Positions 16,441 to 62,769 of a stretch of DNA of 64,000 nt are shown here, piece after piece; the first letter of the stretch is position 1, and each line of letters opens with the position of its first letter. The DNA comes from Podarcis pityusensis (lineage: Eukaryota), in NCBI GenBank assembly GCA_964106645.2, contig OZ067049.1, one strand, 5' to 3'. The translations under genes were made by a program, and so were the position numbers. The notes below the pieces were generated by a model. It was not told where the DNA came from. It did not search any database and saw only the letters and a program-made list of their open reading frames with translations.

Positions 16441-18091
16441 GTAGTCCTAATAGGATTTGGATAATATTCTGTAGGAGGTAATGTATTGTGCACTGATATG
16501 GAGAATTCCGGGTTCTTGGGTTTGTCTGTTTTGTTGTGTTTTTAGCTTTTAAATAAGCTTTGCTTGAGATAAATGACCAAACAATGGTCGAATGATTCAG
16601 AAGCAGCACAGACTTCATACAGAAGGCTGGCCATGGTAGCTGCTTGCATACAGCAATGCCCTTCTTTCTGTATTCATGTGGGGGGACCATGTACGTCCTC
16701 TAGATCCAAGCCGTAGGCACGTGCATTCGTGCAAACACAGACACATACATAACTACACAATGTCCATATTATAAGCAGCAAAGCCCCGAAACACTTATCG
16801 TGTGAACTTGTCATTTAAATTATTCAACTATGGCAAAGGCTCCCCCCAAAATTGACGGGACGGTGTGTGTTTGTGGGAGGCAGAATTAAACAAATCTGAT
16901 TTCTCCAGCCCTTTTAACTGTTCTCTGAAATGTTCGGAAACTTGAAGGGTGGGGGAGGGGAAAAAAAAAGAATATAAAGGATATTCCCGTGCGTTTCCCA
17001 ATACCCACGCACCCGTACCCACCGCAGGACATGGAAGGGAGAGGTCTTGTTCATTTACAATAGCTGTAAACAATGTGTGTATCCGGTGTAAACAAGGCGC
17101 TGCAGCTCCTTCGCCTCTCGCTGGGCTGCTGCGCATAAATGGCAAGGCGACAGCACAGCGCAGCCTCGAGCCCAAGCGAGGTCGCTGTTGCTTATTCCGC
17201 CTCATTGGAATGCAGGCGCCCGGACACACTCCAATAATGATCGTAACCGAGGCCTTGTAAGCTACAGAGAAATCCTTGGGGTCCCCCCTCCCGAGTTTTC
17301 CTGCCTCCCCGGTCTCCCTCTTTCCGCCCCTTATGCCCTTAGGGTCTGCATTCCCTGCAGACATTGGAAGGACTGTTCTAGCTTCGGGGTGGGGGGAGAA
17401 ACAGCGGAGAGAAAACAGAGTGATTCTGAAGGCCACCACTGTAAGTAAAGGGAGAGCAAGGGCTGTGTGTGTGTGTGTGTGTGTGTTTGCGCAAACGGGC
17501 CGGCGGCTAGACCTCATAACACAATATAGCTCAATAAAATATAATGAGATAGAACCAGTAAGCAGGACTGGAAATTGCTACCAGATTCCCTCTCTTTACA
17601 GCGGAGTAACTGAAACACACCCACTACATATGGAGGAAAGCAGGGCAACAGACATTTTTGCGAATAATGCGAATAATATCACCAGCAACAGCAGCGACAA
17701 TAATCAAAGTATCCAATGATACGGATTAGACAATAAAATCTGGACATTCCTAAACTGGCAGAGTGCACCTGACCTTGAAGGAAACCTGCATGAGAAAACC
17801 CGAAGACAACCGATCCTAGCTAAGCTTGAAGGTCTCCTCCAATAGCGCCTTCAAACATTTCCCCCCTCTTCCACCTTGGCTGAAATGGATTAATTGAGGT
17901 GGCCGGAAAGGCGCTGGGTTTTTCGGCGCGCAGAAGGCAAACCAATGGCATTGGGACTTAACGCCTGCCGAGGAAAGGTAGCTTGCCAGATTTCTTCGGT
18001 AAAAGGCGGTATTATTAGTATTGTATCGCTATTACTACGAATGGACTCCGGCGCTTATTCTTATTCTTATTAGACCCGGTTGATGATTTCA

Positions 18092-18180
18092 AACTGAAGT
18101 AATTAAGGCAGTTTCGTGCTGTAGAGAGAGATTGAGATCCAGCCCCAACAACATGAAACTACCTAAACCACCGACCAGTT
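18092..18180 (-). ncRNA. MIR196B: mir-196 precursor (HoxA-cluster paralogue, syntenic with mammalian mir-196b); mature 5p 18165-18144 UAGGUAGUUUCAUGUUGUUGGG
   Basis: Mature sequence is recognisable. The 3p arm ACAGCACGAAACUGCCU pairs with it, the flanks ACUGGUCGGUG / UUACUUCAGUU match the 196b type, and it lies between HOXA9 and HOXA10. Confidence 0.96.
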
Positions 18181-35518: not shown

Positions 35519-35751
35519 TTAAAGCAGTGGATTAGCTGAGTAATATTGTAATCGGTCCCTGTTAATTTTTTTCTCTTTCATTCTTCTGTTTTGAAACCAT
35601 ATTTTTACTTGACGGTCGGTCAAGTTGAGCATTCGGGAGAGCTGGAGGCGTTTCTCTTTGTTTATATAGACACTGAAGAAGAATTCCCTCTCTAATTCTC
35701 TAATCTGATATTTGGTGTAGGGGCATCTCTTTTTACGGGTGCGTTGTCCAC
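35519..35751 (-). CDS. HOXA11: HOXA11 exon 2 (homeodomain)
   Basis: [76 protein letters not shown]. Acceptor CCACAG at 35752-35757 (minus). Confidence 0.97.
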
Positions 35752-37239: not shown

Positions 37240-37440
37240 ATTGGCCGGTGGGTATTTCACGGCCAATTTCAGTCCCCGCCACGTGATCTCTCCTTTTATA
37301 ACAAAGTTTTGTTGGGGGAAATCTACAGGCCCTTCCATAAACCTTATATGCTTATAAAACAGCATATAAAAATTTAACAGCGGCGGTGCGCTAAGATTTC
37401 CAAGTCCGCTTCATAAAAGCGCCAGGGCGCTGCCTTTATA
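37240..37440. promoter_or_regulatory. HOXA11 intronic enhancer candidate (HOX13-type sites; driver of antisense transcription)
   Basis: CCAAT, CACGTG and about six Abd-B/HOX13-type cores (TTTTATAA, CCATAAA, TTATAAAA, ATATAAAA, TCATAAAA, TTTATAC) within 200 bp. A HOX13-dependent intronic enhancer driving Hoxa11 antisense RNA is established in mouse. Confidence 0.65.
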
Positions 37441-37445
37441 CGTAC

Positions 37446-38220
37446 TGGAGCTGCTGGATTTCTCCTCATTGTTGCCGGAAGACGAAGCCGGGCTGCTGCT
37501 GCTCTCCGTCCGCCGCCGCCGCTCCTTCTCCTCCGCAGCCGAGGCCGCGGCGCTCGCGGCAGCCGCCGCCGCCGCCGCTGATGCCGCGTCCCTGGCGCAG
37601 CTCCCGTCCGAACTTGACGTTGCGCCGACGGCGGCGGCGGCGGCCGGCCCCGGAGCGGCTCCCCCTCCCGGGGGCATCTTCTCCCCGTTCTTCTCGCCTG
37701 CATAGTCCGAGTGGCTGTCGGCCGTGCCATAAGCCGTCTCGAAGAACTGGTCGAAAGCCTGCGGGAGCACCCCGTTCCTGCCCACGGTGCTATAGAAATT
37801 GGAGGAGACGCTGGCGGCGGCGGCGGTGGCTGTCGTAGCCGGGTGGTGGCCGTGATAGACGGCGGCGGTGTTTTTCCCGAACATCTCGCTCATGCTGGCG
37901 GCAGCGGCGGCGGCGGCGGCCGTGTTGGCGGCGGCGGGCAGGCAGTCTCTGTGCATGATCTCCTCGGCCGAGTAGCAATGCGGGAGGTTGTTCCTGTGGT
38001 GCCATTTACTAGCCGGATCAATGGCATACTCGCGGAAGGTGACTTCCCGCACGGGTTGGACCTGGGGTAGGTTGGAGGAGTAGGAGTATGTCATGGGGCG
38101 AGAAGACGGGGTCTGGGGCAGGAAAGAAGGGAGGCTGGAGAAATCAGGACCCGACACGTAGTACGTGCAACTTGGCAAATACATATTAGACGAGCAAGGG
38201 ACACGCTCATCAAAATCCAT
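37446..38220 (-). CDS. HOXA11: HOXA11 exon 1
   Basis: [67 protein letters not shown]. Donor A|GTACGT at 37445. Spliced CDS 775+233=1008 nt, 335 aa. Extra in-frame ATGs at 38223 and 38247. Confidence 0.96.
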
Positions 38221-38227
38221 CATTAGG

Positions 38228-38263
38228 CTACCTCGGGCTCTCCGCATTAGCCGAGCTTAACAT
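38228..38263 (-). other. HOXA11 u[14 protein letters not shown]
   Basis: Read directly. It ends 4 nt before the ATGATG start. Confidence 0.55.
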
Positions 38264-39890: not shown

Positions 39891-42800
39891 AAAAAGGCAA
39901 CTGGCTGTGTTTAGAAGTAGCGTCCACACCCAAGAGTAAAAGGAAACCAGGTGGAAGTGCTGCTGGTGGTGTGTGTCTGTGTGTGGAATAATCCTGCCAA
40001 GCGACAGGAAAACCTACAGCAACCATGTCCCACCCTTTCCTATGTGTACCCTCTTAATATGCTTAATTTTAGGAAGATCCGTGTTTTGGCTGGATCTGAT
40101 TATAGCGGGGGGCAGGGTGGGGAAAACAGAACTACCACAAGGCCACAGATAACTCACTATGAAATTGGTGTAAAAAGAAAACCCCGCGCACATATCATTC
40201 CAGGGGATGTCATGATCTCTTGGGGGTAACTTTTTTTTTTAAAGGGAGGGAGAAATCCTTTTTTAAATTGCTGTTTTACCACCCACCCACCCACGTAACT
40301 TCTTTTTTTTTAATACACCAGAAGCTCAAAGTTCTACTGTACATGCTGGAGATCCGGGGATTTGAATGTCAAGATCGATTTGTTTATTTATTGCTGAACT
40401 TATCGTAACTGACTCAATAACAAATCTAATCATGTTGGGTCCTGGGAGGAGAAAAAAATCCTCATTATGTATTTTCTCTGCGTTCGATTTAACTGTATAC
40501 GAAGCTGCAAATATCAATAATATCTAGTAATTACTTTGTAGCGGAGTAAACTAATTTATTAACATTAATGTTTATATGCCTTTTACCTCGCTCTTTCTCT
40601 GGCTCCCTATTTTCTTTTCTCTCCCCCCCACCCTCCCCTCTTCTTTTTCTTCTTATTTTACAAGGGTTACCAATCACAAATCAAACGCTTTGGACATATC
40701 CCTTTAATGAACTCTTTATTTTGGATCGCTGGAATAACTTTTATGGGCCTTCAACGGTTGTGAGCTGAACTTGAAATTATTAATTAATCTCCCTCCTTGT
40801 CGCATTTGCCAAGAGAGTGGATGGAAATAAGAGATAAGCGTGTCATCAAAGGGCTAGTTACAGATTGCTTGGGTCTGTGTGGGACTATAAAACTGTTTTA
40901 TTTCTTTTCTTTTAGAGTGGGGGGGGGGGTGAGGTGCAGAAATATGCAACACTGATGCTTGCCAAATTGGCCTTAACGACAGCCTTTTGATTTTATTTTC
41001 CCTCCGTCCCGAATAAAACAAGGTATCTGAGAATTGTATCTAGCTTACATTTGTACCGTATATACATATGGTAGAAAATACATAATGAAGATCCCCAGCC
41101 CCAGGACCCAAACCATATATATGTATGAAAAGATTGCTTGATTCCTTTCCCTTCCAACTGGACAAGAGTGGATTTCTGAAGGCTCCCCCCTTTTCCTCCC
41201 CAGTGATAACAAAGGCGCCACCATTGCCCAGACTCGCTCCTCCTCTCCTGCCTTAGCAAACAACTTTCTTGCACTTGTATGGAGGGTGGGGGGGCGGGGG
41301 CTTTTACAGGCTCTCATTGAACCCGGCGCGTCTAGGAGAACCGAAAACAGTTCTAGACTGGCCTGGGGTTTTATGGCACTTTTGGCAGTCAACTTCAGCT
41401 TGTCTCTGAGCGGACATGCCAGATCCGACCGACTGAAAGCCAGGAGACAGACAACCACCTACACGGATTTCCCCCCCTTCCCGCCTCGCTGGTTTCAATA
41501 AGTCTGCTGCAGCCTTAGGTGAAAAGGGGGCAGGTTTGGAAGCCCAAGGTTTGTTGTTCGGAAGGACTCCAGGTCCTTTAGGTGACCGAGAGCCTTGCAT
41601 GTTCAAATCCTTTCAGACAAAGGGGAAATTAAGATGGGGCGGCGAGGAGGATATAGGATGAAGGAAGCCTGTCCAGTTGTCTGCACCTTCAGCCATCTCC
41701 TGTCTGGCTTGGGATATTAGTGATGGGTTTTCGTTTTTCGGAAATGAATTAGATACTCGGAGATTTGGGGGCAGTTGCATTTTTGTGCAAAGGAAGAGGT
41801 GGCGGTGTGTGTGGTGGAGGAGGGGTGGGGGACACACACTATGCATTGACTCCTGGCAACCGCTTACATTTGTGAAGCCATTAAAGGCTATTATGCAAAG
41901 GGACAAGACTTAAGGGTGCCGCTAGTCTCAGAATTAGTAGGCACCCAAGGCACACTTATCTCTGCTTTATTTGCTGCTAAGTGATAGGCCGCTAATGTGT
42001 GCCTCCAACTCCTCCAAATGGGCCCTCAGTTATGGTGAGCCTGCTGTTAAGGTGGCTATTTTGGGGGCTTATTTGTTTGCTCTCCTTTTTTCAAAAAGCC
42101 TCCCCCTTGAATGCAATATCCTCGACTTCCTCTGCTGAGATTCGGTAGGAGGAGGGAAAAGGAGCTGAGGATCATCCCCTGAGCCTGCGCCATCCCCACA
42201 ATTCACCTTGAGCGAAAGCCACGTAGATACCACGGAGGTGTTTAGTTTGGGGTTAGAAACCGAGGGTCTCAATTTAAGGATTTAAGGATTCAGTGCACGT
42301 AAGTGGGGGAAATAGGAAAACACATGCCTCCACTAAACGAGGAAGAACGGTTTCCATTCCGGAAGATTATAGGCTTTCTCTTCGTCGCTGTAACGAGCAC
42401 AAGAATAAAGATTCGAAATGCTCCCTTTGTTCTCTAAAGACCTCGCTTTATTATATGTTAAATGCCTCTTCGCTTTCTTACCTATAAATTGTCTAGTATG
42501 GTTATATGCCAGGCGCCCGTCGCTCAGATGTACACGATATTATAGAGAACGGTTGCTTCTTTACGGGTATATATTTGGCAGATGTTTGTGAAAATTCGCT
42601 TATCACGTCTTTTTCTTAATGTATAATGTGTTTTGCCATTGGGCCCATGCTGTACAATTTTATTTTATTTTCAACTGATCTCCTTCAGTTCAGATGTACA
42701 GCGGTACATGTCGCTGAACTTAAATGGGATTTAGGTCTGCGGCATTTGTCATGTTACTGTGGGTATATGCCCTCTATTAGCTAGGTAGGTTGCATATGGC

Positions 42801-45302
42801 ACCTAAATGGACAATCAGGAGAGATGCTGGTTTGGGGTTATCGATGCTGCAAGTGACTCCTGGCTTTTAATTTTCCATTACTTAAAACAAAAGCAGCTAT
42901 GTAAACGAAGTTTCATTGCTGTAGAACCATTTATAAACTATGCTTATAAATGTATTCTGTCCCATTGGCCATTATTTTCCCTCTATTTGCTGTTCTTAAA
43001 TGCACACTTGCTGTTATAGAAATGGCCTACAAATACATAAATAAATTCACAGGGCATGAACCAGAAAAAATTAAGCATTTTCATTCTCCCTTATTTCAAT
43101 GGTGAGAGATTTTCTCCTGTTTTCTGCTACTGAACTCAGTGGGGTTTAGAATCACTTGTACACTGGATCATGTCCCTGGAAGCAATTATTAGGAATATTG
43201 AAAATAAATATATGTTTAAAACAGTATTTCGGTTGTATTTCCCTAACAGTGAATGGATATTAACAAAATACAAATTGTGGAACAAGGTGCTGTTTTTTCT
43301 TGCAATTTGACCTAGAGATACTGGTGTCAGTATTTACGTTAGAAATTAAAGCAAATGCATTTGAAAACGTATTTTTGTTGCCTGATGAGATGGCGCTAAC
43401 TGATTCCGACCCTATACATATTTGATTAGAAATAAAGTATGGGCCCGATCCTATCTAAAACTGGAAGTGTTTCATTGACATCGGAAATCATGGCTAGGTT
43501 AAAGTTAAGGGTTTTTAGTTGCCATTAGTTTAAGCAAGAAAGATTGACTTTCCTAATTAAGATTATTACAACCCGCCTAAGTTACTTTCCCTATCTTAAA
43601 CTGCGTTTGCTTCCAAGCAAGCCCCATCGCTTTCCACGAAATCTGCTTCCAAGTAAGTACCCTTGGAGCTATGAACAGAATGTTACATGTGCTTTCAAGA
43701 TACGAATACACCGCTTACAGACGGCAGTCGTAGATGTGAATTTTCTGTATGCCTTTCGTCCACCTCAGTGCAGCGTTCGTTTCATTATAGCACTCAGCAA
43801 CAGCTTCTGTGATAGACAGGGCGACTGTACTGTACACTTCATAGCGTTGCATAAGCATTTGCAAAAAAACCTGAGGTATTCCTTTAGGTGTTGCAGTCAG
43901 TGTTTCTGTAACCGACTGGCCGGAGAAGGAGCCACATATTCATGCTCTTGTGCTTTGCGTGTGCATTCTGGCGTGTACATTTATTTGACCACTCTCCTTC
44001 CCCCACTAAATGAAAATATGGGCAGCGCACACAATTACAGGATTCACAAGACTTCTTTTGAGTCCCAATACATAAAGCGTCCAGATGCAAGGTTCTCAAG
44101 GTGTTTAGAGCAGCTAACTTGGTTTGAGAAGAAAAAGCAGGAGCGTGAGGGGTGGAAAGGTCTGCACGTTCCCTAATGGACAAAACACACCCGGTTCATA
44201 TCCGCGAAATCCCTAACAAATCAGCCATTGCAGAACGTAATAAGCACCAGCCGGTTAAACCACAGCACTGTAGCTACTACCAAGGAATTTATATTTCTAG
44301 CATTTTTTCCTTCAAGGTTGCGTCTGGATCTGTCCCAGCAGATCTGCTGCTTCAAGAGAGTAAAACACACGGACACCGCTCTTGTAAATTTCAAATACAT
44401 AATACCCTCTGACATCCTAATGAGAAGTCCAGCCACGGATTCTGAACCTGGTGGTTTTTCCTAAAGACCGTGAGGTCAATGTCTGGTCTGCAAAGCAGAC
44501 CATTCCCGTTTATAAACAACCAAAACAACCGCAGGACAACATTTCAAGTTTGACATATTTAGACGTATTGTCACAGGTGATGCCTTGAACTTGACCTTAA
44601 GTTTGTTAATCAACAAAATCCACGAAAATAAAACATTTTAATGCAATGATCGTGCTCTGTTTCATTCTTTACTTAATGGATGAAAAACCGTTCAATTTCT
44701 TTCATTTCTCTATTCCCAGCATTGAAAATTTATTTCTTGTTCAAGACTGTATATTTGAGCAAACATTTTTTTATTTCATTATACCTGTTGTACCTTCAGT
44801 GATTTCACTAATATTGTTCTTTGGATACAGAAAAGTAATTTGATAAAGGGTTATTATTTTAATCACCTGTTAGGTACAATAAGTACAATAACATATATGC
44901 TTTTTTAACTCCCCACATGGGAGGTAAAATATATGCTTTTAAACAACTATAGAATTAGTACGACCTATTATAACAACATTTTGTTCCAATAAGAAAACGT
45001 TTATTATTTTCCCTAAATCACCAAGTGACGACACAAAGCTTCTCATTATTCTGTGCTGCAAACTCACTGTAAAAGTCATTCTTGATAATCGCCATATTCA
45101 CCTAACATACAATATTTCTCGTCTCCAGAGTTTCTCGGTAGCTTCGGAATACGAACTTCAGATTTTTGAAGGCCTTCAAACAAACAAATTGCCTGCGTTT
45201 TTGCAATGCTACTCTGCAATACTGGACAAAAAAGCGAACCACGGACCATTTAAGCTGTAGTAGAAGGGAATAAGACAACTGTATTCTCATTGGGCCTCGT
45301 CG

Positions 45303-45393
45303 TCCCGCAATCCTAGGAGCTTTGACTTGAGACTAAGGTTCCATTCATCTCACTGTAACTTAATTATGGGTAAACGTGGTTAAGATAGGACTG
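45303..45393. mobile_element. Degenerate palindromic MITE-like copy
   Basis: gcaatcctagg...gactaaggttccattcatctcactgtaacttaattatgggtaaacgtggttaagatagg. Confidence 0.5.
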
Positions 45394-45961
45394 AATATCA
45401 TTTTCGCACTACACTGATTAAATATACATTCGCTGCTCACAGAATACTATTATTATAGGAAGGGGCAGAAGGGAGGAGCATTTATTTCCCGAAGAACCAA
45501 AGCAAAGCTGCGTGACTGCGAATATTTAGTATGGCCGTAAGGTCCATTTCTGCACCATTTGCATCGTCTTCACCAGAAAGGAGCATGAACATATTGATAA
45601 CCAGAATGGGAAGGAATCTTAACCCCACTGCGAGTCTAATATGTTGGAGAACCTTCTTCTACAGTACCCGCACCAGGAACAGAAGGGGGAAAGCGCAGGG
45701 GTTTTTTGGGTGGGTGTTATAGAATACGCTTTTCCCACGGGGGTCAAGCAAGGATGATAGTGAATAGAGGGGTCTACTGGGGGGGGGCTCTTGTCCCACT
45801 CTGGCCCCGCCTATGCTCTTCTGCATCGTTTGCATCAAGACTGCCTCAGTAATGCCCCGAAAAATAATAATAGCCAGAATAAACTCGTTCGAATGAGCTG
45901 CAGGGCCGGAGAAAATAGTTATAGCCCTTTAGCTGCATTGAGGTTGAACTGTATCTGTATC

Positions 45962-46004
<43 letters not shown>

Positions 46005-49000
46005 TGGTATTATTTGCATCAATAATGAGAGAGTGGGCGGGAACAATAACAAGCAGAATAAATAGGTTAACAATAAGGGCGAGTAATAATTACTCTGTAG
46101 TGCCCTGGGTTTGAACTGGATTGATAATCCTGTCTTTGCATCAGCAACGAGCGGAAAAATAGCAGCCAGGAGAAATTGGCTAAAAATACACACGGAGGGG
46201 CAGCGCCCTCATCTAACATTTCCTCAACCCTGTCCCTATCTCCACACAGCTGTCCACCCTAGTGGGTCTCCTTGTTGCGGTAAACCTTATTTATATTTAG
46301 TCACACGCAATCCATTAATTTAGGGAAAAAACCAAGGCGTCTTCGATTGCCATCTAAATCTTCCCTGAGGCATCCCTCGCCCAAGTCCAGGGTCGGATAA
46401 AAAAGGCTTTTAAACCACGAGGTACCCCCACGAGGATATTTCTGATGTTCCAAATACTCAAAATGGAAGACGGCTTAAGCAGAACTATAGAAAGCGGGGC
46501 TGTTCCCTGTTGTGCCTAGGAATGCTGTCCCAAAGATAAATAATTGTAATAAAAGCTGTGTTAATAAATCCATGCACACATTACGAAAGCTTCTTATTTG
46601 ACGGCAAATAGATTTTTGGACGGCGTGAGGAGAGGGAGGTGGGACTTCCAGAAATTGCACCTCGAATTGTGGCGTGAATAAAATTGCAGGCGAATTGCAG
46701 GCGAATGTTACTTCCCTCTTTCCAGATAATAAACACTTCGTTATGCTGTAAATGGGGTTTTTTTTGGGGGGGTGGTAAGGAGGGGGGCGGTTAGTAAAAA
46801 GAAATATGTTGGTGCTTTTCCAAATATTATCTATATCTAATCTATATTCATCGATAGACAGATACATATGAAACGTCAAAGCCGAGGGGTGGTGAAAAAA
46901 TAACGGCTTTGGGGTGAAGGTGTGGGAATAATACTGTAATACATCCCACAAAAGGAAAGACAGAAACTCATAGAAAGACAATTTAGACGACACCGATCGC
47001 AGGCACGCATTCAGCAGCGGCACCAGAAATTTTATGAATACATACATATTCATATTCACATGGCATTGCCACGGGCGTGGAGATTATCAGAATAATCTTA
47101 CCCCATTCTCCAAGATCCAGTCTACCGGCGCAAAACATCAAAGAGGAACTGGACAAGCAGGTTTCGGATCTCGCCTCTAAAGCTCCAGATCAACTCGGAT
47201 TTTAAAGGAGGGGGGAAACCGGGAGAGCCGGTATGCTAATAAAGCTGGATTGAGGCCGGCTGATCTAGACCCCCTCCGGGTTTTGAATCATCCGACGATC
47301 GGGAAGCAGAGCCCTTAAGGTTCGTCTGCTTCTTCTCGTTACGAACTTGAGCCAGAACATGCGCCCAACATCTCACGCTGACTTCTCCTCCTCTCAGATC
47401 CCGCTGCTTAAAGTTCCGATGGAGATGATCAGGCCAACGAAAGTGAGGGAACGGGACTCAAGGGCGGTGGAATCCCATACGTGTCCTCCCCCCACTAGTC
47501 CCACCAGAGGGAAAGTCCAAATGTTTTTGATGGCGGGACACCCTGACGTTCCCTCCCCAATTCACCATGGGTCACCGTACAGTAATGACCGTGGTTTGTG
47601 CGTTGTAGGACTTGACCTTTACTACGTCGAAGAGGGGCTCTTTCTTTCACGCTGCATGAGGAGATGAGGGAGGGAGGGAGGGAGGGAGAGGGGGCGGAGG
47701 AAAAGATGCGCTCTTCGGGGATCTTTAATCGGAAATCAGAAGCAAGAGCGGCAAAAGCCACGGGCTTTTTCCTGCACGCCATATTTGGTCTATTTCGCCA
47801 GCGAAAGACAGCCAGGACCGTTTCCTCCCCGGAGCTTGGAGTTAAAGAATTAAACGTATGCAACGCAGAAATGGGTGTGTGGGGGGGGGGGGGGAATATC
47901 CGGGAAAGACTTCTGCTTCCCTACAAAACTAAAACGAAACGAAATCTATCCTCGTCAATAGATTAGAAACATCCACTTTCATTATTGACGCGCCTTTCCC
48001 CTTCCTCCCCCCCACCCCCACCTATCATAAAACAACCAGTGGGGTCTTGGGGAGGGAGGGAAGGAGGGAGAGAATCCAGGAGCAAAGTGTGTGTGTGTGC
48101 GTGCGCAGGCGAGGGGAGGGCGTTAAAGAGAAAGCGACACAATTTATCTCGGACCTTCACAGATCGCTCGAGCTCCATTCAAATCTGCGGGACAATCTTT
48201 CAGTACCGCAGAATGAGCGGCTGGAAACTATTATCCACGATTCTGCTTTTCCCCTGTGCCTAAGAGGCTCTCCCCCTCCCCGCACTGCTCAGGAAGCCCG
48301 TGTTTTCCATTTGTCCGGATCCAACAAACTCAGGCTCTTTAGGTCTTCCTCACGTTAAAAAAATAGTTACTCGTCTCCATTTGCAGAGGGATTTAGATAC
48401 TGAAACGTATTCCAGTTAACACACACTGATGCCATTTTAAAAACCAAATTTTTAAAAACACTCACTGACATTTAACTTTCATTTACAGTTGGGCCCTAAA
48501 ATAGTTGACCGATATATATATTTCTAGAAATCTAAGTCTTTTCCTGGATAGCACAAGCTATTTATATCCCAATCATTGCAATCTGAAGCACTAAGCGCTT
48601 GGTGTTTTGAAACGGAAGTATGTTCGAGGGAAGAAATGGCCTAAGTTATAGACTCGCAGTATTACTTTAATTCTGATTAGGAAACACACTGCTGTCAAAT
48701 TTTATTTCCTGTTGAGAAAAACACATTTGTTGCTGCCAGCAATTTGAGAGGTTAGAATGCGGATTATATTCTGGAGTCCTATATATATTCCTTCTACTTT
48801 AGGTGATTATGTAGAGCTTGCAGTTGAACGTGATGCACCTCTAACTTTTCCAGGATTGGCACCATCTGAGTTTACAGTTAATCTTACTTCGCCGTTCCCT
48901 ACCGCCATTAAAAGTCAATATGCATAAACGCTAATCATTTCCCCACATTACTGTATTTCCTAGTTAGGGACAAAGTTTAATACCCAAGGTGGTTAGGAAT

Positions 49001-49665
49001 GTTTCCGTTTTGGAGGAAGAAGAAAAGGTGTGTGTGTGTGTGTGGAGCGCAGTATATACTCACAGACCCCCCCCCCCATGCAAAACGCAACGATTTAGGA
49101 AGGGAAGTTTCTTAAAACTATATTGGTGTGTTAAACACGTTTGCTTTGAGAAGTAACGGAGGTTTTCTTATTGAAATTAATACAAAAACCATCCTGGTGT
49201 TTCTATGGCAGAATGAAGCAGGACAAGTGGAAGGGTCCACGTTAGCGCCAGGCTCTTTGGAAAGGCACGAATGCTGCGTGGGAACTCGCAGCGAACTCAA
49301 GGCAGGCATTCGTAGTGGCGGGCGCATTTCATTAGTGATAGATGTTCTTATAAAGCAGATATTACGCATATATTTCAGAACGAAGGCGGCAGATGGGGAG
49401 AGGGGGAGAAATGTGACCCAACAGCAATTTGTAACCTGGAAATATATGTGCCAACAGTTTAGGGGTAAATGAAGGCCATAAATAACAGGCACCACACCCT
49501 ACCGGAACATCTAGGCATTCCTATTACCGAAGCAAAAGAGAATGAATGAGGGGATTTAATGGATGCAAAACCAATAAGAAAATGGAAGTTCATTCTTCAA
49601 GCACAGTTTATCAAGCGGCCTGGTCTCTCCAATCTTGATACAATATAATAGGACATTGCATCTCA

Positions 49666-59810: not shown

Positions 59811-62769
59811 CATTGTTATTATCATTGGCACTCTATTACGAGTATATGTTATGCAGACACGACTGCTTAAGGATTTATATGCATCCTGCAAAATGCAAGT
59901 AGAAGTTAATTCATGGTAATATAATCACGCGAGAGAGTGGGGATTTGAGAGTTACTGACCTCCGACCACAATGAAGGGAGTAAACTTGTCTTTGTAAACA
60001 AAAGCAAAAGCAAGGAAAAACAAAACAAAACAAAAAACCCACCACACCCAAACCTCTGTCTGTTTGTTTGATGCACGCTTGACAGGTATTTATGAACTAT
60101 TGTGCGAGCGGTTGGGGCTTGCAACATTGTTTTCGCTGCAGTGCTACCAGGATGGAATTCTAAATCGTGCATTGTTTGGAGAGACTCCCAGTCCCTTGTA
60201 TGTAGGAAGGAACAGATCTGTCAGTTCGCTTGCCTGTCCCCCAGTCTGCCCTGCCCTGGCCCTTTTCGCTGAGAATGGCATGCGACAGAGGGGACTCTTG
60301 TCACCGGACAATATTTCAGCGAATTCTCTTAATTGTAACCAATAAAGGGCTCCTTTCCTCTCCAACCCCAGCCTCCTTCTCCTCCTGGATGGTCTTTTCC
60401 GCATTCCTCCTCATGGCCAAAGGCAAATATTTATTCCTGGCATATTTTCATATCCCCACCCACCACCCCGCTTTCCAGGCTTCAGCCGTTAGGAAAAATG
60501 TAGGCTTCGAAATCTTTCCATTATTTGGCAGGGAGGGGAGGGGAGGGGGAGCTTCCCTTCGCCTTCCCTTTCCTTTTGGGGAATCTCATTCTTTCAAAAC
60601 GCCTTGCAGCGGAGCCAAAACACAGCACACTCAGCCTTCCCCAACTCATTCAATTCATTAACCTACCCCAGCAAAAGGCTAACAGGGCAGCGCTCTTTTA
60701 GGGAGGGAGGGGAGACACGACTAGAGGCCAAGGTCAAGTTGAAAGCGGCAACCTAGCCAATGCCAGGATGGTCATTCAGAGCCGGAGGAGACTTGTCTGA
60801 TTTGCTACAAAGAAGAAGAAGAGGGGGGCAGCCAATTACTCCTTTCCAACCCCCCCCCCGTGTGTGTCCTTTTCGGCCTTTCTGTCTGTCACTTTCCAGA
60901 CAAACCCTTCCCTCTTCTGGTTACGGAGAACTTTGTGTGCAACTGTGGCTCTTTGAGGGTGAAGCACGATGCTAAACAAAAAAACAAACAAGCAAATAAA
61001 TCAAAAGATGTACCAGTAGAGGTGGGGATCCTATATGCTGTTCGTTTGTTTCCTTGCTTGGCTTTGACCAGTTCTGATGATAAAAAAACAAAAACACAGG
61101 GTGTGTGTGTGTGAGAGAGAGATGAGGCTATATTCACATCATTGCTCTAGCTCCCAAGAAAGGCCGAGTTTTGCTGGACATTGATCAGAACAGAAGCTTC
61201 TTCAAACTCAGCCTGACCTGCTGCGCGCATGAAAGAATGAGCATTTCTAGGGGCGTCTCCATTTGTCTGGTTCAGAAATAGATTTCTAAGGAATAAAAAC
61301 ATGGGGCGGTTACCGCCGTCGGTCCAATGTACAGTTTTTTGCTTCTCCGGTCACTGGGATCAAGAGAAGCTTCCAAAGAGTTCAGCTGGAGGTCCACACT
61401 GAAAGCCAACAGATAGGTGTTAGAGAAAGAAGCATGCACAAAAAAGCGAGGTTGGATGTGGACGCTGCTTTTTGCCTGGTCTAAAAACTACCTGGCGATG
61501 AGCCGAGCAAACAGGAAAACCGTAGGGCTTGACCATGAATATTAGACGAGTGCGTATAATACGGGCGAAATCTGTTCTCTACTGGAGGAGGTTAAAATAA
61601 AGTAAGATAAAAAATGTAAAACCTCTTTGCTTTCCTAAATGCAAGTAGAGCGACTGGTCTAGGTAGCCAAAATGAAGCTTTTGGTGGTTTGACGTGTGTT
61701 TGTAGGTTTTAAATTGATCTGTTCACTTCAAAGATCGTGTAATCGCTTCTGTGTATGTGTAGCAAAAGGGACAAGAGTCCACGTAAAAACTCTTGCAGAA
61801 TTCCGCCATCCCGCTTTTGTTGATTTGTCTGTGACAACCCCAAGAAAGACCCGCCATAGCAGACGGACCCACACCTATGGCGTGTGGGTCCTCTCCGCTT
61901 TTGCGGTGTGTATATAGGTGTGTGTATAGGATTGCGGACACCAGGGATAATAGAAAGTTTGGGTGCTCTGTTCTCTGATGATGGGTCTTCCTTCCGCAGG
62001 AGGTAGAAACCCAAACTGTACTCCCTTCCTAGTAGGCGGGGTTCTTCCACTCCTGTGGAATGCTTAATCAAAATTACGAGATGGTCGCGACATCGCCCTC
62101 AACCTGCGGCCTAACGGATTATTCCTTATGCGCCATATAACTGCTAATGACGACGGTCTTCTAAGATCGCCGCATGAAGTAGGAGTGACCCTTCCAGTTG
62201 TACTGAGAACTGCGGCCTTTTAAATAATGAATTTGGACTCCATTCTTTAACCGGACCAGAAATTCAGCTGAACACAATGGAAATTGGCCGCTGAATGACG
62301 CTTGAGAGGCATTGACCTCACAGAACGATATCTGGTGGAAGAAGAGAGGGGCACTTCTAATGTAAAACCAAACCCTTGGAACGCATTAGAAAAGAAAACA
62401 AGGAATGATGTGGTTGTATTTATTCAGGAGAACCCGAGATGGTTAAAAGTGTTGAGAGAAAAATGTCATCCCCCTTTGCAACCTCTGTTTATGTATTAAT
62501 GGAAGGAGGTTTGCAACCGTGAGTGGATGAGCGTAAGAGGCGTCTCTCTTCTCCCTGTGGCTCCAGAGCATTCCTCAATGGCAAATACATTTTTCGCAGA
62601 CTTAGGTCGGGGTGAAGACAAAGTTCATAGAAAAACGAAAAAGCTGGCATTCTTGCCCCGCCCCGTCTCTCCCCTCCTCAATAGATGCTACCACTTAGAA
62701 AATACTTTAACATTATATAAAAGCACTGCTAGGGAAATCCTTCCTTAACACCAAAACAAAACACCCAAA

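Follow-up and report, generated by a model that had tools for sequence, protein, structure and literature searches.

The known elements closest to those reported here include two outside the posterior Hox genes. At the Oct4 (Pou5f1) promoter, the repressor NR6A1 (GCNF) binds an AGGTCA-type direct repeat with zero spacer (DR0) and recruits co-repressors (PMC10909835), and the same element is contested by RAR/RXR, COUP-TF, ESRRB and NR5A2 (PMC4446430). Around Hox1-5, spaced direct repeats of the DR5 and DR2 types act as activating retinoic acid response elements (RAREs). We analyzed a 64,000-nucleotide stretch of Podarcis pityusensis DNA (contig OZ067049.1 of assembly GCA_964106645.2; hereafter the window) that carries the posterior HOXA cluster, together with the other Hox clusters of the same genome, and found that DR0 sites of the NR6A1 type are concentrated in the Hox9-13 half of the four clusters. 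Unlike the Oct4 element, which is a single promoter element with proven binding, these are dozens of dispersed, predicted sites biased to one cluster half. They share with the anterior RAREs a direct-repeat design and a position-dependent layout repeated across Hox clusters, but they are zero-spaced, lie at Hox9-13 and are predicted to be repressive.

NR6A1 binds DR0 as a homodimer and recruits NCoR/SMRT, DNMT3 and MBD proteins; it is found in trunk-stage progenitors, from which it is removed by GDF11 and miR-196 (PMC9755267, PMC10909835), the latter repressing Nr6a1 in mouse (PMC9755267). Loss of Nr6a1 in the mouse turns posterior Hox genes on early, with Hoxd11 moved forward by 6-7 somites and Hoxb13 raised more than 200-fold, and prolonged Nr6a1 lowers Hox11-13, Hoxa11os and Hottip and raises Hoxa9, Hoxc10 and Hoxa11 (PMC9755267). 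The same study notes putative NR6A1 sites in each cluster from re-analyzed mesenchymal-cell chromatin immunoprecipitation, and the existence of sites is therefore not new; elsewhere, NR6A1 binds DR0 at neural-crest genes, possibly activating some (PMC12957460). A 2024 review states that direct repression of posterior Hox genes by NR6A1 is unclear (PMC10909835). A reviewer of PMC9755267 raised the question of how a factor of broad expression can be selective for posterior Hox genes, which the authors placed beyond the scope of their study, describing such experiments as ongoing, and that paper leaves the extreme Hoxb13 response unexplained.

A preliminary description of the window had reported NR6A1-type motifs around HOXA11-HOXA13, giving the extended half-site in its usual form TCAAG(G/T)TCA. 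All six motifs quoted there were recovered with the same positions and strands, as were five copies of the 9-mer (17770-, 40766-, 44586-, 54215+ and 54255+), four of them between HOXA11 and HOXA13 as it had said. Its estimate that about one copy would be expected proved slightly low: 100 dinucleotide shuffles gave 1.40 +/- 1.17, with one of the 100 reaching five, and the 40,921 copies in 1.515 Gb predict 1.73 per window (Poisson P=0.03). The excess stands at a modest size and is weak evidence taken within the window only, because the motif was picked by eye. The 60725 site lies outside the five 9-mers, and a one-mismatch DR0 at 52696-52707 had been overlooked. Following the DR0 definition of PMC10909835, where the extended half-site is printed as TCAGGTCA, the window holds one perfect DR0, four one-mismatch DR0 and two extended half-sites, listed here with their scores in bits from a held-out matrix, built from three clusters to score the remaining one:

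60724-60745, plus strand: DR0 array of three half-sites, AGGCCA-AGGTCA-AGTTGA, in the HOTTIP region and 2.1 kb upstream of where HOXA13 translation starts; scores 16.8 and 15.8
44581-44597, minus strand: perfect DR0 AGGTCA-AGTTCA, then AGGCA, between HOXA11 and HOXA13; score 19.4, the highest within 264 kb around HOXA
40766-40777, minus strand: one-mismatch DR0 ATTTCA-AGTTCA, which includes TCAAGTTCA, in the HOXA11-AS region, 2.5 kb upstream of where HOXA11 translation starts; score 16.9
52696-52707, minus strand: one-mismatch DR0 GGTCCA-AGTTCA, the newly added site; score 15.7
54212-54223, plus strand: one-mismatch DR0 AAGTCA-AGGTCA, which includes TCAAGGTCA, on the 3' side of the HOXA13 homeobox at a distance of about 1.8 kb; score 15.9
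54255-54269, plus strand: extended half-site TCAAGGTCA followed by AGGTTT, 40 bp away from the preceding site; the 9-mer is perfect, but as a DR0 the site is weak and scores below 9 bits
17770-17778, minus strand: extended half-site TCAAGGTCA in the HOXA10-HOXA9 interval, 0.3 kb from mir-196 on its 3' side; score 11.6, no higher than background

The perfect DR0 (RGKTCARGKTCA, 44586-44597) occurs once where 4,983 genome copies predict 0.21, and the site at 17770 is equally readable as an ESRR/NR5A-type site. The array at 60724-60745 is the candidate with the best support in the window.

HOXB, HOXC, HOXD and the rest of HOXA were taken from the same genome, and the clusters unseen by the preliminary description served as an independent test. 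We split the clusters at the Hox9 homeobox into posterior parts (Hox9-13, 272 kb in total) and anterior parts (first homeobox to Hox9, 452 kb; HOXC was counted from C3, leaving out a putative C1 region). Exact matches to TCAAGKTCA numbered 5/0, 8/1, 3/3 and 2/1 (posterior/anterior) in HOXA, B, C and D, which for HOXB, C and D comes to 13 versus 5 (P=0.003). In posterior bias over the four clusters the motif ranked 21st among 382,483 degenerate 9-mers of the same form, several of those outranking it being pieces of the same repeat. Generic DR0 with at most one mismatch gave 29 posterior versus 10 anterior matches in masked HOXB-D (P=3e-6), and A-junction DR0 (RGKTCAAGKTCA, up to one mismatch) gave 28 versus 3 in the four masked clusters (A 4/0, B 11/0, C 6/2, D 7/1), where a third-order Markov model expects 4.1 and 8.0. 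Two matches lie in the coding sequence of HOXD12 exon 1 (G000:C1:116922271 and 116922775), and dropping them left 26 versus 3; HOXC and HOXD alone gave 11 versus 3 (P=0.001).

Unmasked, A-junction DR0 reached 11.0 per 100 kb posteriorly and 1.5 anteriorly; the whole genome gave 3.6 (55,076 copies), a set of 40 randomly chosen stretches 4.2 and another 20 homeobox loci 2.0. The anterior halves are themselves depleted (7 versus 16.4 expected, P=0.008), and there is an excess posteriorly as well. GC content is 0.444 in both halves, and none of 719 permutations of the half-site columns was as extreme as the observed pattern, the next best being rotations of the same repeat. This permutation replaced a reversed-pattern control (19 versus 13), which we discarded for its overlap with the motif's reverse complement. 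Retinoic-acid elements are expected at anterior Hox genes, and DR5, our positive control, leaned anterior (9 posterior versus 30 anterior), as did DR2. With their zero spacer and posterior location, the window sites fall outside the classical DR2/DR5 Hox RAREs. The chief anterior exception to the bias is a paralogous element, AAAAAGTTCA(T/C)GTTCA, that HOXA, B and C share in their Hox6-8 regions (G000:C12:37011315, C13:21130883 and C2:14766240) and that was masked as paralogous sequence.

The held-out matrix placed its six top scores in the 264 kb of HOXA (15.7-19.4 bits) at 40766, 44586, 52696, 54212, 60725 and 60731, all within the interval singled out by the preliminary description. At a 12-bit cut, bias was seen in HOXB (13 versus 2) and HOXD (9 versus 3), and the pooled count was 34 versus 17 (P=2e-5). 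The comparison with shuffled sequence and anterior Hox regions that the preliminary description had proposed came out weak in the window alone and strong over four clusters, for the strongest sites only. The bias needs the A junction: G-junction DR0 (12 versus 11), DR1 (15 versus 18), the NGFI-B response element NBRE (15 versus 23) and TCAGGKTCA (6 versus 7) have no posterior bias, and TCAAGTTCA (10 versus 2) is as biased as TCAAGGTCA (8 versus 3). This sub-motif pattern best fits what we take to be the preference of NR6A1, ahead of ESRR, NR5A, NR4A and DR1-type readers. The earlier proposal of an NR6A1 brake is partly supported and reaches further than it was first put: the motif class is real, and its posterior bias extends to all four clusters. 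We predict with high confidence that the sites are functional nuclear-receptor elements. They are best read as a putative ancient set of nuclear-receptor silencers with NR6A1 as the predicted reader, and it is our favored, moderately probable interpretation that the DR0 sites in the Hox9-13 half of the four clusters are direct docking sites for this repressor.

One window site points to deep ancestry. Positions 60724-60745 equal the Rfam HOTTIP_2 consensus over 22 of 22 bases, the longest exact stretch in a poorly matching alignment of 374 positions (38.4 bits, under the gathering score of 80; E=1.5e-7); on this site the conservation check called for by the preliminary description gave a positive answer. 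A 17-mer within it (60729-60745) occurs exactly twice in 1.5 Gb, here and 9.1 kb upstream of HOXB13, and the flanks of the two copies are otherwise unalike. A looser 15-letter consensus, which is post hoc because it was built from those same loci, has 97 genome copies, three of which lie 2.1, 9.1 and 2.7 kb upstream of HOXA13, HOXB13 and HOXC13, in each case antisense to the gene. The pattern points to a single ancestral element upstream of the three genes, with convergence on a triple half-site as a possible alternative. A candidate 2.6 kb upstream of HOXD13 in the same orientation (AGTTCACGTTCA) did not match the A/B/C consensus and was rejected as a paralogue.

For the other sites, Rfam scans of the HOXB, HOXC and HOXD stretches found no family covering another site, and a pattern search of metagenomes, aimed at vertebrate orthologues of the 54212/54255 pair, returned at least 120 loci, none of those listed aligning to the site flanks. 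The stretch 54150-54330 is present in 18 of 24 listed public runs, mostly of the same organism or possible sources, and two other organisms that hold 11 of its 14 words are too few and too selected to count. Contigs aligned to 40501-54100 showed about 3% divergence, and among 40 listed of the 552 differences none was informative for the sites.

HOXB13 has the most sites, with 13 matches, five of them within 11 kb 3' of the homeobox. In the 112 kb gap between HOXB9 and HOXB13 (G000:C13:20994136-21106734), unique sequence carries 11 near-perfect DR0 sites, and five of these lie no more than 11 kb from HOXB13. Upstream of the gene, an array of three to four half-sites (G000:C13:20977726-20977746 and roughly 40 bp of adjacent sequence; another AGTTCAAG lies close by) is the strongest DR0 cluster seen. 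In mouse, we take the interval mm9 chr11:96051451-96051951 to lie about 4 kb upstream of Hoxb13. A RAR/RXR peak at that interval is among the rows listed from the supplement of PMC4446430, and the mouse Hoxb13 DR0 (Moutier 2012; Osz 2020, PDB 6XWH) is a characterized RAR/RXR element whose sequence is printed in PMC7515732. The best non-coding match to its 16 bases in the roughly 1.06 Mb of the four clusters, 14 of 16, falls at the HOXB13-upstream site, the paralogue of window 60725; an equal-scoring match falls in the B13 coding sequence. The lizard array is likely the orthologue of the mouse element, judging from sequence and the presumed mouse position. Unlike the Hox13-paralogue silencer proposed here, the mouse element has been studied as a RAR/RXR model element.

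In HOXD, a TCAAGGTCA site at G000:C1:116908527 (116908510-116908540), 1,928 bp beyond the stop codon of HOXD11, adjoins an inverted DR1-like stretch. Region IX (RIX) of Hoxd11, a single element, reportedly binds RARs and COUP-TFs in vitro and has been linked to these receptors, not to NR6A1; point mutation of the nuclear-receptor sites of regions VIII and IX (RVIII/RIX) is said to move Hoxd11, Hoxd10 and the sacrum forward, as does loss of Nr6a1. The Anolis RVIII/RIX footprint spans 1,849-2,374 bp (PMC3091776, supplement 1), and the HOXD site falls inside this span of the element described by Gerard et al. (1996), a match of position only. A second HOXD site, 734 bp upstream of HOXD12, was not equatable with region XI (RXI), which lies 1.2-1.9 kb upstream in human and chicken.

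Since the motifs crowd the tail-end Hox genes and are scarce at trunk genes, they likely let NR6A1 directly hold the tail genes off. In trunk-stage progenitors, NR6A1 dimers on the posterior DR0 sites would keep Hox11-13 chromatin quiet, and the antisense RNAs HOXA11-AS and HOTTIP would also be kept off during trunk building. Trunk genes, having no strong sites, would be spared; a broadly expressed repressor may pass over them because strong sites are scarce around Hox1-9. Clearance of NR6A1 would lift the brake, with miR-196, transcribed inside the cluster, possibly closing a double-negative loop that lifts it. HOXA11 may respond indirectly through its antisense RNA, and competition from RAR/RXR, COUP-TF, ESRR and NR5A, as described for the Oct4 promoter, is probable at some of the sites. 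The HOXA sites in HOXA11-AS (40766), around HOXA13 (52696-54269) and in HOTTIP (60725) match transcripts that fall in Nr6a1 gain-of-function, and HOXB13, the most responsive gene, also has the most sites.

Several points weigh against NR6A1 as a direct posterior brake. The four-cluster counts all come from one genome, and the A-junction P-values are optimistic because that pattern was picked after the HOXB-D matches had been seen. Without HOXA, the 9-mer ranks 589th of 378,108. At the 12-bit cut there is no bias in HOXA (5 versus 5, P=0.3) or HOXC (7 versus 7, P=0.23), and the polarization is confined to the strongest sites. Deep conservation was found for one of the seven window sites, 60724-60745. 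The NR5A consensus YCAAGGYCR also leans posterior (24 versus 13, P=0.0007), at near genome-level density, and DR0 is bound by COUP-TFI/II and RAR/RXR as well as NR6A1 and resembles ESRRB and NR5A2 monomer sites (PMC4446430). In mouse without GDF11, loss of Nr6a1 alone leaves most posterior genes inactive, and Hoxa11 is among the genes raised by prolonged Nr6a1 (PMC9755267). The HOXA sites are therefore no simple brake on HOXA11, and the direct brake of the preliminary description fares unevenly in Nr6a1 gain-of-function, with Hoxa11os and Hottip down and Hoxa11 itself up.

The alternative binders named in that description (NR5A, ESRR and RAR) do bind overlapping motifs. Of the other accounts, the one that survives best is that these are real silencers read mainly by RAR/RXR or COUP-TF (NR2F), with repression that is retinoic-acid-dependent or constitutive and NR6A1 acting indirectly. 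The reported in vitro binding of RARs and COUP-TFs to Hoxd11 region IX would suit it. So would the binding of DR0 by RAR/RXR and COUP-TFI/II and the fall of Hoxd11 and Hoxd13 on retinoic acid in F9 cells (PMC4446430), along with the characterized Hoxb13 DR0 (PMC7515732) and the listed peak nearby. RAR/RXR, however, binds DR0 non-cooperatively and with lower affinity, leaving reporters unmodulated (PMC4446430, PMC7515732), and G-junction DR0 and DR1, which RAR/RXR and COUP-TF accept, lack the posterior bias. A RAR/RXR DR0 has the form RGKTCA-RGKTCA, and either junction is allowed. Among 9,956 rows listed, no RAR/RXR peak appeared for the coordinate prefixes tried at Hoxc13, HoxD and HoxA. We consider this account unlikely.

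Less probable still, and in our view doubtful, is that NR5A1/2 or ESRR use these as monomer sites to switch on posterior Hox genes, or their antisense RNAs, in the gonads, genitalia, kidney or lateral plate. TCAAGGTCA is an ESRR/NR5A extended half-site (PMC4446430), YCAAGGCCA (8 versus 4) leans posterior together with YCAAGGYCR, and the extended half-site is the only form that 17770 and 54255 fit. Judged by the consensus (TNAAGGTCA or YCAAGGYCR, with G at half-site position 3), 17770, 54215, 54255 and 60729 fit a monomer site, whereas 40766, 44586 and 52696, with AGTTCA, do not. Variants specific to these families lean posterior only weakly, as with the ESRR-type TDAAGGTCA (13 versus 9); TCAAGTTCA, which NR5A and ESRR disfavor, is as biased as TCAAGGTCA, and the posterior density of the NR5A consensus, 8.8 per 100 kb, is near the 7.5 of random DNA. 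In 38 aligned sites the upstream half-site is specified at all six positions, partly by selection.

Chance clustering, composition or old repeats, with most sites lacking function, would accommodate a window-only P of 0.01-0.03 for a motif picked by eye, the 588 of 378,108 other degenerate 9-mers that score as well or better in HOXB/C/D alone, and the looser cut and single deeply conserved site noted above, but it is very improbable given equal GC content, a bias that survives masking, the Markov control, permutation and the dropping of HOXA and HOXB, 38 posterior sites whose flanks share no repeat family and, the pair of 60729-60745 and the HOXB13-upstream site excepted, nothing beyond the motif, the 22-base HOTTIP_2 identity, and a paralogous site at three Hox13 genes.

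The stretches 54100-54400 and 44480-44700 have one genome match each, no window site was masked, and read depth in related runs is at baseline over 40766, 44586 and 52696. The multi-copy repeat with shared flanks expected of a transposon-derived motif was not seen, with the limit that a library of about 1.6 Mb may miss repeats that are old or low in copy number. Very high-copy repeat fragments do occur elsewhere in the HOXA11-HOXA13 gap, at about 53050-53130 and 53700-53800 (depth hundreds to 100,000-fold), in agreement with repeat invasion of squamate Hox clusters, and a dense run of CAAG(T/G)-type half-sites lies in masked repeat-like sequence between HOXA13 and EVX1 (G000:C12:37139262-37140721).

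In the window, the posterior HOXA cluster lies on the minus strand in the order HOXA7, A9, mir-196, A10, A11, A13. Gene names are our recognition of the translations, backed by Rfam matches to HOXA11-AS1 and HOTTIP:

37411-38247, minus strand: HOXA11 exon 1 open reading frame, homeobox at 35549-35740, named by recognition of its translation
57908-58639, minus strand: HOXA13 exon 1 open reading frame, homeobox at 56045-56227, named in the same way
18096-18174, minus strand: mir-196 precursor (Rfam RF00256, 77.7 bits)

Rfam also places HOXA11-AS1_4 at 40306-40535 and HOXA11-AS1_5 at 41332-41543; the 40766 site sits between the two and inside neither. AT-rich sites of what we take to be the CDX/posterior-HOX type (TTTTATGG, TTTATAAA and AATAAAA, at 40739-40746, 44509-44516 and 44627-44633) lie 20-80 bp from the 40766 and 44586 sites.

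The preliminary description had tied the motifs to squamate trunk elongation, for which we found no support: the best-tested site is common to the HOTTIP family, which is mammal-derived, and to HOXB13 and HOXC13, and the HOXD12 and HOXC3 homeoboxes are intact in this genome. Its occurrence in that family and in paralogous clusters makes the feature look ancestral, the occurrence meant being that of the site at 60724-60745. A snake-specific reading was rejected on these signs of ancestry, from a comparison set that had no snake sequence. The intact HOXC3 homeobox lies at G000:C2:14653185, with a further homeobox where HOXC1 would lie (C2:14553887), and the HOXD12/HOXC3 complement is presumably of the lizard rather than the snake type. 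More tentatively, and short of what we would call probable, the arrangement may reflect a two-sided nuclear-receptor code that predates the cluster duplications, with activating DR2/DR5 anteriorly and repressive NR6A1 DR0 posteriorly. An ancestral Hox13-upstream silencer would have been kept in HOXA, HOXB and HOXC, Hoxd11 region IX and the Hoxb13 DR0 would be members, NR6A1 would be the true reader in vivo, and site number would set the strength of the brake (most at HOXB13), a cis-level dial of trunk length.

Our literature search, from which subscription journals were mostly absent, found no report of the posterior bias, the Hox13 paralogous element or the RIX link. In principle, a posterior-biased DR0 set would answer both how NR6A1 selects posterior Hox genes and why Hoxb13 responds so strongly, and it names the exact bases to mutate. 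The site list permits comparison of limbed lizards with snakes. If the reading of these sites as NR6A1 docking sites is true, the timing of the trunk-to-tail switch, livestock variants in vertebral number and the NR6A1 vertebral syndrome would be tied to defined cis-elements.

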